IMG/VR virus record: IMGVR_UViG_2534682161_000017
Location: 1-28,791 of that record
DNA from: a virus
Taxonomy: Duplodnaviria > Heunggongvirae > Uroviricota > Caudoviricetes
Reading direction: 5' to 3' (one strand)
Length of the DNA: 28,791 nucleotides
In this document: piece after piece, positions 12,001 to 15,000 of the stretch
How positions within the stretch are numbered: the stretch's first letter is position 1
Layout: each line of letters begins with the position of its first letter
Made by a program: the position numbers

Positions 12001-15000
12001 TCGTCAGCCAGATATGTAATGACTACTGCCATGTTGACCTCCGATGATTGACTTTGGCGGTGACGCGCCGGGTGCTTATCTTCCGGTTGCCGTCGTGCAG
12101 CTGCACTTCACGTCACCCCAAAGCCAACTACTCTTTGGTTCCCGCATTTCGGCGGGACAATCCCATCAATGTTAAAGAGCCTGCCAATCTGTTCCGTTTG
12201 GCTACCAGCTTCCTGCTGATGGCTTAAAGATAACTTAGGTTATAGGTGTGGTCAATAACCTAATTTATATTTTGTGGTAAATAAGTTATAAGTGATGGAT
12301 AACAAAGGTATTTTATTTTTGTAAATGTTGCTGATTGATTGGTGTTTGAGGGCTTGCGTGCTGGGTGAAGGTGTTACCTTTGGCTTGATGCTTGTCTATG
12401 ATGAGGATGGTTGATTGGATGGTGAACGGCAGGGAAAGAAAAACCCGGCGCTGAGGCCGGGTGTTTTTAGTCCTTTCTGTTGCTTAGCATTTCGTCGATT
12501 TCTAAGTCAATACGATATTGATCTATTGATTTTCTCTCGTTTGGGGTTGGTATTTTATACTGTTCAATTAGATCTGTTGTGTATTTTATTTCATCTAATG
12601 TGATTTTTATATCAGAGAGAATCTCTTTTATATCAATTAGATGCTCTTCTTCTTTTGCGCGATTAGAGCTATGTTCAATCATTTGAGATAGCTTTTTGCT
12701 AATGCTTAGCAAAACAAAAAGAATGATGACCAAAACAACAACAAAAACTATCAGAAATTCCATTATCCCTCCGCACTTCCGTAAGTCTTCTTCTGATTAT
12801 CGGTTACCAACTATGAGACGACCAGAATACTCTGCCAATAATCCTTACGGTTTCATGAAATTCATCTCTATCCATTACTTCATCCGGGTACTCTTCGCGA
12901 TTTATTGATCTGATTATCACCGATGTAGGGGTGGCGATTAATGTTTTTACTCGTAACAAATCAGACTGGCAAATAGCGTAGGTTTTACCATCTCTGATTG
13001 TGGTATCTTGCGTGTTAACACCAACAACATCGCCATCGTGAAGCGTAGGTTCCATGCTTTGCCCTACAACCCTAACTAGCTTGGCTGATCTTTCAGATAC
13101 TCCCATCTTTTTCAGATAGTGCTTTCTGAAAACCAAAGAGAACTCCGATGATTCCTCTAGCTCGCAGCTACCGCTTCCAGCTGAAAGCGAAACGTTAAGA
13201 AGAGGCAACGCAACAAACTCGTCATCGTTTCTTTTAATGTCTTCCCATACCACAGCTTTTAAAGATGACTCACGGACATTGGATGGTTCTTCATGTGCAC
13301 CATCCCTCATTTCACCAATACCAGAACTAAGCCATTCAGGGCGCACTTTTAAAGCATTGGCTAATTCAACCATCTTGCGAGATCCGTTTGTTTTACCGGA
13401 CGACATCTTCTGTATGGCTGGCTGAGATATTCCAACCATGTCTGCAAGCTGTGATTGTGATACCCCAGCTAAGCTCATGGCTGCATTTAGTCTTTCTGCG
13501 AATGTTTTCATACCCACAAATCTATAACTACGGTTATCCAAAGTAAAATAACAAAGGTTATTGCTATTTTTTATAACTTGAGTTATCTTTGGTTATAATC
13601 AATGACCACAAGAGGTATGCTCATGAATTTAGTAATTCAACGAGCCTTGAAAATTGTCGGTAGCCAAAAGCGCCTTGCCGACAAGTGTGGTGTAACGCAG
13701 CCAGCAGTACACAAATGGCTGAAAGGCGGATTGGTCTCTCCAGAGAAAGTTACCGCCATCGTTAACGCCACTGGAGGGCAGATCAAGGCTTACGAAATTC
13801 GCCCCGATTTGCCACACCTGTTTCCAAAACCGAATCAGGCAGCATAAGTAACACCGCTCTTTAACAGTCATGGTCCTCATTCCCGCCGAAATGCGGGAAT
13901 ACAACGCGCATAAGTTGATGCGCATAACTTCTTATTTGTTAAGGAAATACTTACATATGGTTCGTGCAAACAAACGCAACGAGGCTCTAAGAATCGAGAG
14001 TGCGTTGCTTAACAAAATCGCAATGCTTGGAACTGAGAAGACAGCGGAAGCTGTGGGAGTTGATAAGTCGCAGATCAGCAGGTGGAAGAGGGATTGGATT
14101 CCAAAGTTCTCAATGCTGCTTGCTGTTCTTGAATGGGGCGTCGTTGACGACGACATGGCTCGATTGGCACGACAAGTTGCTTCGATTCTCACCAATAAAA
14201 AACGCCCGGCGGCAACCGAGCGTTCTGATCAAATACAAATGGAATTTTAACAACATCCAACGAGGTAATTATATGCGAAACAAAGGCTTTAATCCACCTG
14301 ATACACACAAAGAAGCTAAGCGTTTGCGCTTCCTTCGTTCCATTGATGAAAGAACTCAAATCTCTTTTGTGAAAGTTGCCAGAACTGAGCTTCTGAAGGC
14401 TGAGGCGAGGGCGTTGCTCCCGTCTCTACCAAAAGAGGAGGGATATACGTTCATTCCAAACGCATTTCTGGAAAAGCTTCTCAAAGAAGACATATCCGTA
14501 AGTCAGTTTAACGATGTTCTTAAGGTCTTTCGTCAAGGCAGGTAGTTATGAGCAATACAGCAAAAATCTACGATTTCAGCGCCGCACACGAGCGCAGGAG
14601 CAACAGGATGGAGAACCAGAAAACTGGTTACATTCCGTTGTACCGGAGCATTCTGAAACAGTCATGGGCGAAAGATGTTTATCTTCGCACCCTGTGGGAA
14701 AACCTTCTCCTGAATGCCGCCAGAAAGCCATACAAAGCGAATTTCAAAGGTCATGAATGGCATCTGCAACCCGGTCAACTGGTTGTGACAGCAGCTGATT
14801 TAGGTCTTCAGTTATGCGACAGGCATGGCAAGCCGGCAAGCCGTGATCAGGTTGAGCGGATGCTTCAGGTTTTTGTGAAAGAGGGGATGATCACCATTGA
14901 TGGAGAGAAGCAAAAAGGTCGTGTGATCACCATCACAAATTACCATGAATACGCTCAAAAAATGGACAATTCACCCGCACATGAAGCCGCACAAACAACC

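Follow-up and report, generated by a model that had tools for sequence, protein, structure and literature searches.

The junction between cII and the replication initiator gene is occupied by an additional reading frame in the IMG/VR virus record IMGVR_UViG_2534682161_000017 (Caudoviricetes; positions 1 to 28,791, referred to below at its full length of 28,791 nucleotides (nt) as the window). This raises the question of what the frame is, where it came from and what it does. An initial annotation of the window had described a 90-amino-acid (aa) open reading frame (ORF) with a Shine-Dalgarno sequence at this position, and both its coordinates and the GAGG motif were verified. The frame was also said to adjoin the initiator start, which it does, with 2 nt between its TAG and the initiator ATG at 14548. 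Lambda was said to pass straight from cII to O, in agreement with its coordinates (cII at 38360–38653 and O at 38686–39585), and has no gene in this slot. In P22-like and lambda-like prophages of enterobacteria the frame, termed ORF90 here, is a true gene and belongs to the early genes of the rightward (pR) operon. Its protein is under strong purifying selection, and its sequence points to a probable origin in the 5' part of an initiator gene. At a probability of roughly 40%, we favor the reading that ORF90 derives from an initiator 5' stub, was kept by selection and serves as an accessory of the replication module that is coupled to O.

14273–14545, plus strand: ORF90, with ATG start, 90 sense codons and TAG stop (14543–14545)
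14262–14265, plus strand: Shine-Dalgarno sequence GAGG of ORF90, 7 nt 5' of the ATG, read from the sequence

The same frame is open from position 14000 (14000–14545) and holds an in-frame GTG upstream, within cII. Every relative starts at the equivalent of the ATG at 14273, and a corresponding GAGG or GGAG lies upstream of ORF90 in all diverged loci.

ORF90 is a gene under purifying selection

Comparisons between loci covered about 170 fetched loci and nine diverged lineages, among them a member at 41% identity. Pairwise comparison of six diverged ORF90 copies resulted in ratios of nonsynonymous to synonymous substitution (dN/dS) of 0.007–0.14 at a proportion of synonymous differences (pS) of 0.37–0.80, with synonymous sites at or near saturation. 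In a codon-by-codon table, columns with an invariant amino acid held up to five synonymous codons, and 42 of the 90 residues were invariant among 12 members of 71–96% identity. Length was kept at 86–93 aa with no frameshifts in lineages that have diverged to 50% identity, and copies at 71–80% identity, from Salmonella, Scandinavium and metagenomes, retained the 90-codon length.

These values bear on the alternative that ORF90 is a non-functional remnant, the frame of which stays open by chance or because its ends carry pO and the Shine-Dalgarno sequence of O. Such a remnant would fit with nucleotide-level invariance being limited to the two ends of ORF90, that is codons 1–4 and the last AGG, and with the annotators of CUS-3 having left the gene uncalled. 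It does not fit with a dN/dS of 0.03–0.14 along the entire ORF90 at saturated dS, with the invariant residues or with a length conserved without frameshifts, and truncated or fused versions of ORF90 are rare singletons. A chance ORF or a decaying remnant was ruled out by the dN/dS values and the codon table, and a non-functional remnant is accordingly hardly credible.

ORF90 belongs to an already catalogued family. The profile hidden Markov model of PHROG 2519 gave a significant full-length match (E 1.9e-57, 192.8 bits, residues 1–90 against positions 1–90 of the 90-position profile); PHROG 2519 is thus the family of ORF90 and is catalogued without functional annotation. The same protein is labeled "hypothetical protein" in GenBank/RefSeq (JEP4, TL-2011a, Kapi1, Gally and E. 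coli genomes, in E. coli by PGAP) and is unannotated in CUS-3. The DNA of ORF90 does not differ between the window, CUS-3 and JEP4 (100% identity), and TL-2011a and 48 Stx2a-converting phages match it at 99.6%. A literature search found no paper discussing ORF90.

Four rare database variants were also noted (P0014, P0035, P0023 and P0030), in which part of cII is fused to ORF90 or the C-terminus is exchanged. Deletions or rearrangements in prophages undergoing decay are the probable source of these variants.

The C-terminal part of ORF90 resembles a segment of lambda O

The ORF90 protein of 90 aa (10.5 kDa) is basic with a pI of about 10, and this charge is unevenly spread, the N-terminal half having a pI of 10–10.9 and the C-terminal half a pI of 5–6.7. 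An AlphaFold2 model (pLDDT 83.7) predicted a compact helical protein composed of a helical hairpin (residues 10–23 and 26–51), a beta hairpin (54–59) and two further helices (63–71 and 76–87).

14429–14536, plus strand: O-like segment, ORF90 codons 53–88, resembling residues 22–59 of lambda-type O

In O, residues 22–59 make up the beginning of the origin-binding winged-helix domain, namely its first strand and two helices. Six independent comparisons gave one and the same register for ORF90 residues 53–88 against O, a signal that was weak but consistent. The Pfam model PF04492 matched ORF90 at profile positions 6–39 (E 0.048, 14.6 bits) and matched 16 of the 19 ORF90 family members, at best with E 5.2e-5. 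TIGR01610 gave E 0.011, with 16.2 bits for family member P0009, and phrog_678 gave E 0.009. A BLASTP alignment to residues 26–59 of lambda O had E 5e-4, and hhalign against lambda-type O had E 2.5e-4 at a probability of 43%.

The curated cut-offs are 28.7 bits for PF04492 and 45.5 bits for TIGR01610, and ORF90 fell below both. ORF90 covers no more than about a third of the winged-helix domain (95 positions) and lacks the recognition helix and the wing. Owing to these sub-threshold scores and the partial domain, ORF90 was not filed as a member of the O domain family. It is like the N-terminal domain of lambda O (PF04492/TIGR01610) in the residue 53–88 segment and in its start region, whereas lambda O in addition has the recognition helix, the wing, iterons and a C-terminal domain that interacts with helicase/P. 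Neither iterons nor such a C-terminal P- or helicase-recruiting domain was found in ORF90.

The remainder of the protein gave no matches. Residues 1–52 of ORF90 matched nothing, ORF90 had no similarity to the N-terminal domain of the adjacent, window-type O, and the CII family PF05269 did not match it. No solved structure was found by sequence, either with the single ORF90 sequence or with a profile. Scans with family profiles detected no helix-turn-helix, ribbon-helix-helix or other DNA-binding family in ORF90. A ribbon-helix-helix for residues 17–50 was considered and dropped, as this stretch is helical in the model and families of that kind gave no match.

The start of ORF90 lies where O starts in lambda, at a candidate pO-like promoter

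13957–14250, plus strand: cII (PF05269, E 5.6e-48), with TAA stop ending at 14250
14268–14273, minus strand: candidate -10 box TATAAT of a pO-like promoter, overlapping the A of the ORF90 ATG
14193–14261, minus strand: predicted OOP-like antisense RNA of about 65 nt, from the -10 box to a hairpin and U-tract in the 3' end of cII

At the DNA level the cII genes of the window and of lambda share about 98% identity, and similarity to lambda ends exactly at the cII stop codon, from which 22 nt separate the ORF90 ATG. The longest ORF for cII (13870–14250; 3098–3478 in locus L003) encodes 126 aa, the form annotated in CUS-3. It starts 87 nt upstream of the lambda-type start at 13957 (MVRANKRNEAL), and it is the 97-aa form that matches lambda cII and the Pfam model.

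The ORF90 start region of the diverged locus L100 (atcaacaggagtaattatATG) is plainly homologous to the region upstream of lambda O (atcaacaggagtcattATG), which places the beginning of ORF90, with a similar ribosome-binding site, where O begins in lambda. The proteins also start alike, with MRNK in ORF90 and MTNT or MSNT in O (M-x-N-x).

The 18 nt around TATAAT on the minus strand (TTTGTTTCGCATATAATT) were invariant in 11 diverged ORF90 loci. Codons 1–4 of ORF90 (ATG CGA AAC AAA) are invariant even at synonymous sites, because the conserved TATAAT region overlies the ORF90 start. The site had been omitted by a generic promoter scan, its -35 match being below 4 of 6. Lambda has the same arrangement, with CATAAT over the ATG of O and an RNA of 77 nt. 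Common to lambda pO/OOP and the ORF90 loci are a -10 box over the first start codon after cII, an RNA of 64–77 nt and a terminator located in the 3' end of cII.

A terminator-like site on the minus strand of the window (14226 to 14199) is nearly identical to that of lambda. The layout of a hairpin followed by a U-tract recurred in 10 of the 11 diverged loci, at -12 to -20 kcal/mol, and in three of these (L098, L099 and L100) the hairpin sequences are unrelated. In the remaining locus, L173, no U-tract hairpin was returned by the script, although visual inspection allows a 7-bp stem with a U-rich tail. OOP-like transcription would proceed from the minus strand at this edge. No Rfam family reached the gathering threshold anywhere in the window. 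As an element of DNA and RNA, the pO/OOP unit is distinct from ORF90 itself, whose 5' edge it overlaps.

ORF90 lengthens the distance from the pO-like promoter to the initiator gene, and to the iterons in it, by about 275 bp, in particular in loci L099–L101, which have a lambda-type O. In one study of lambda plasmids, insertions of 6–500 bp between pO and ori are reported to have impaired replication, and pO activity as well as even small changes in the pO-to-ori spacing to affect plasmid replication (PMC3985674). In lambda, OOP is reported to antagonise CII (PMC5869508).

Given this setting, ORF90 could be a nucleic-acid-binding regulator that acts near pO/oop or the start of O and tunes expression of cII/oop or of O, in effect a modulator of the lysis-lysogeny decision, which was one of the two roles proposed in the initial annotation. 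The very basic N-terminal helical hairpin (pI 10–11), the location of ORF90 within the cII-oop-pO control region and the lambda effects just cited would be in line with such a role. No DNA-binding family was detected in the family profile scans, however, the model had no structural match to a DNA-binding fold, and CII types vary freely beside the same ORF90. We consider this regulator improbable.

The end of ORF90 is joined to the initiator gene

14540–14542, plus strand: last ORF90 sense codon AGG, Shine-Dalgarno sequence for the initiator ATG at 14548
14548–15494, plus strand: O-type initiator gene (PF04492, E 1.9e-15), a frameshifted copy
14975–15105, plus strand: origin-like iterons within the initiator gene, recurring every 12 nt in six copies of CGCACATGA and marking the origin at 14976–15101

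The terminal AGG of ORF90 was invariant in 10 of 10 diverged copies. In all of the about 170 loci the gene following ORF90 was O-like, and began after a 2-nt gap or with an overlap of 1 or 4 nt (ATGA type). Translational coupling of ORF90 and O is predicted from the AGG together with this gap or overlap.

The iterons encode a repetitive peptide of the AHEAAQTTAH type. No iteron copies were found within ORF90, and a role of ORF90 as part of the origin was ruled out since iterons occur only in the initiator gene.

The initiator gene of the window measures 947 nt as compared to 948 nt in CUS-3, JEP4 and TL-2011a, due to a 1-bp deletion in a run of C at 15131–15137. The resulting frameshift leaves an N-terminal ORF at 14548–15222 (224 aa) and puts the C-terminal domain, which ends at 15494, out of frame. 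This is the only truncated copy among the about 170 loci, and the gene is intact in the closest E. coli genome (99.9% identical). The frameshift is either a homopolymer sequencing error or the mark of a replication-defective prophage.

ORF90 keeps its position while its neighbors reassort

ORF90 forms a small family that is confined to Enterobacteriaceae and comprises 34 clusters at 90% identity. A profile search of 1.84 billion representatives at 50% identity returned 15 matches, and the true relatives were all of 52–164 aa. Two long matches (1975 and 2536 aa) cover short stretches of the profile only and are presumed to be repeats. The search was aimed at longer relatives, such as a full-length initiator sharing the ORF90 N-terminus, and the true relatives were all short. 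Among complete E. coli genomes 272 of 5426 carried ORF90, as did 57 phage records; of 185,579 species-representative genomes, 2 did. Together with members diverged to 41% identity, these records and genomes upheld the gene in the conservation check that the initial annotation had proposed, namely whether relatives sharing the flanking genes also keep the ORF.

The position of ORF90 was constant. A CII-like gene lay 20–44 nt upstream in each of the about 170 loci, and the cII-ORF90-O layout was kept even by the most divergent members, L098–L101 (92–93 aa, about 50% identity) and L173 (72 aa, 41%). The diverged relatives come from Salmonella, Scandinavium and Pseudescherichia. The neighbors themselves reassort, with four CII-like types, three types of O DNA-binding domain, the true lambda type included, and five types of O C-terminus found next to ORF90; after O, the replication gene encodes a DnaB-type helicase in some loci and a lambda-P-type loader in others. 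Since three O DNA-binding domains occur beside it, ORF90 is not specific to one type of origin. Among near-identical E. coli copies of ORF90, three CII types were joined to a single block of ORF90 plus O, meaning that in recent recombination ORF90 has stayed with the initiator and not with cII. Phage records with a full-length window-type O numbered 57, the same number as records with ORF90.

12804–13541, minus strand: cI-like repressor gene
13602–13847: cro-like gene
15491–16867: DnaB-type helicase gene, downstream of the initiator

The window covers part of an E. coli prophage of mosaic, P22-like/lambdoid make-up; its best phage matches are HZ41, CUS-3, N7 and HK97, each over only part of the length. 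In TL-2011a the helicase gene (4720–7113 in locus L002) has 797 codons as compared to 458, and its two ends align to the DnaB-type helicase of the window; the insertion of about 1 kb may be an intein.

Unrelated genes occupy the same slot in other lambdoid phages

The initial annotation implied that an extra gene between cII and O is a rarity. This was overstated, as epsilon34 and phages of Klebsiella and Yersinia carry unrelated genes there. Klebsiella phage ST16-OXA48phi5.2 has a 265-aa "DNA-binding protein" in the slot and Yersinia phage vB_YenM_210.17 a hypothetical gene and a KilAC antirepressor; neither the DNA-binding protein nor the antirepressor was related to ORF90 by hhalign. In epsilon34 the slot holds gp49 of 53 aa (1209–1370 in locus L175), and genes 49–53 of this phage have been described as an ES18-like replication region (PMC2629481).

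The layout of the epsilon34 gp49/ST104 ORF27 type of small ORF in P22-like phages is like that of ORF90. A spacer of 20 nt separates it from the cII stop, its ATG is overlapped by a pO-like -10 box (aggtaattATG) and its end overlaps the start of the O-like gene. It differs from ORF90 in being shorter, unrelated in sequence and absent from the tblastn matches with ORF90. Together, the slot genes of epsilon34, ST16-OXA48phi5.2 and vB_YenM_210.17 mark the cII-O junction as a recurrent cargo site of lambdoid phages.

ORF90 could consequently be a general early accessory gene of the moron type, carried in a variable cargo slot and engaged in host takeover, anti-defence or exclusion, in which case its likeness to O would be a trace of ancestry. 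The filling of the slot by unrelated genes in other lambdoids, the independence of ORF90 from the O, helicase and CII types, and its unrecognised fold are all in favor of this. Its tight adjacency to the start of O in every locus and its keeping with O, not with cII, in recent recombinants are harder to explain for general cargo. The PADLOC-DB defence models gave nothing significant, the only match being JetB (E 0.02, 2 of 19 members), so that no defence or anti-defence match beyond this weak one speaks for it. A general accessory function is a real possibility, if on the unlikely side.

Origin and possible function of ORF90

The O-type start region, the M-x-N-x start, the O-like C-terminal segment and the complete O gene that comes next argue for descent from an initiator stub. 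A complete initiator gene would have recombined in downstream and left behind the 5' stub of an older O-type gene, which would then have been retained for a function of its own. That the stub gained or kept a function is indicated by the strong purifying selection.

Coupling, linkage to O and ancestry are the grounds for preferring an accessory role in replication over the other readings. Through translational coupling, ORF90 would be co-produced with O, and it may act by way of protein contacts, with O, with the origin complex or with a host factor that handles O, while not binding the origin itself. The second role proposed in the initial annotation, in replication, is in this respect the one toward which the evidence leans, through the coupling, the travel of ORF90 with O and the O-like C-terminal third.

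Three findings weigh against a replication accessory derived from an initiator stub. A structure search with the ORF90 model matched no known fold, DNA-binding folds included. ORF90 is also independent of the DNA-binding type of O. Finally, the O N-terminal domains of ST16-OXA48phi5.2 and vB_YenM_210.17 are 75–81% identical to that of the window, yet unrelated genes fill the slot in these phages, from which it follows that ORF90 is not obligatory for this type of O.

A more specific version of initiator descent was also considered, in which ORF90 is a regulator that stems from the initiator, being a paralogue of the origin-binding domain of O that was cut short and is produced in fixed ratio with O. 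It would tune the firing of the origin or the stability of O, for example by capping O oligomers or by shielding O from ClpXP. Shortened forms of Rep control some plasmids, and such a regulator would be their phage counterpart; to our knowledge no counterpart has been described for lambdoid phages. This version is unlikely.

Implications for lambdoid phages

ORF90 is a variant on the known mosaicism of lambdoid phages and not a new kind of system. New in the present analysis is that ORF90 probably arose from an initiator stub, and that it is placed between the pO/oop unit and the start of O. This placement indicates that the pO/oop antisense unit remains with cII, and not with the origin, when a gene is inserted, and it bears on the published claims that the spacing of pO to ori is critical in lambda.

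About 5% of complete E. coli genomes and many Stx2a-converting phages (48 phage records) carry ORF90 beside the initiator. If ORF90 does modulate initiation or the stability of the initiator, this would affect prophage induction and phage copy number, and hence the dosage of Shiga-toxin genes. If its proposed descent holds, ORF90 would be a clear case of a gene fragment produced by mosaic recombination that was recruited as a new protein.
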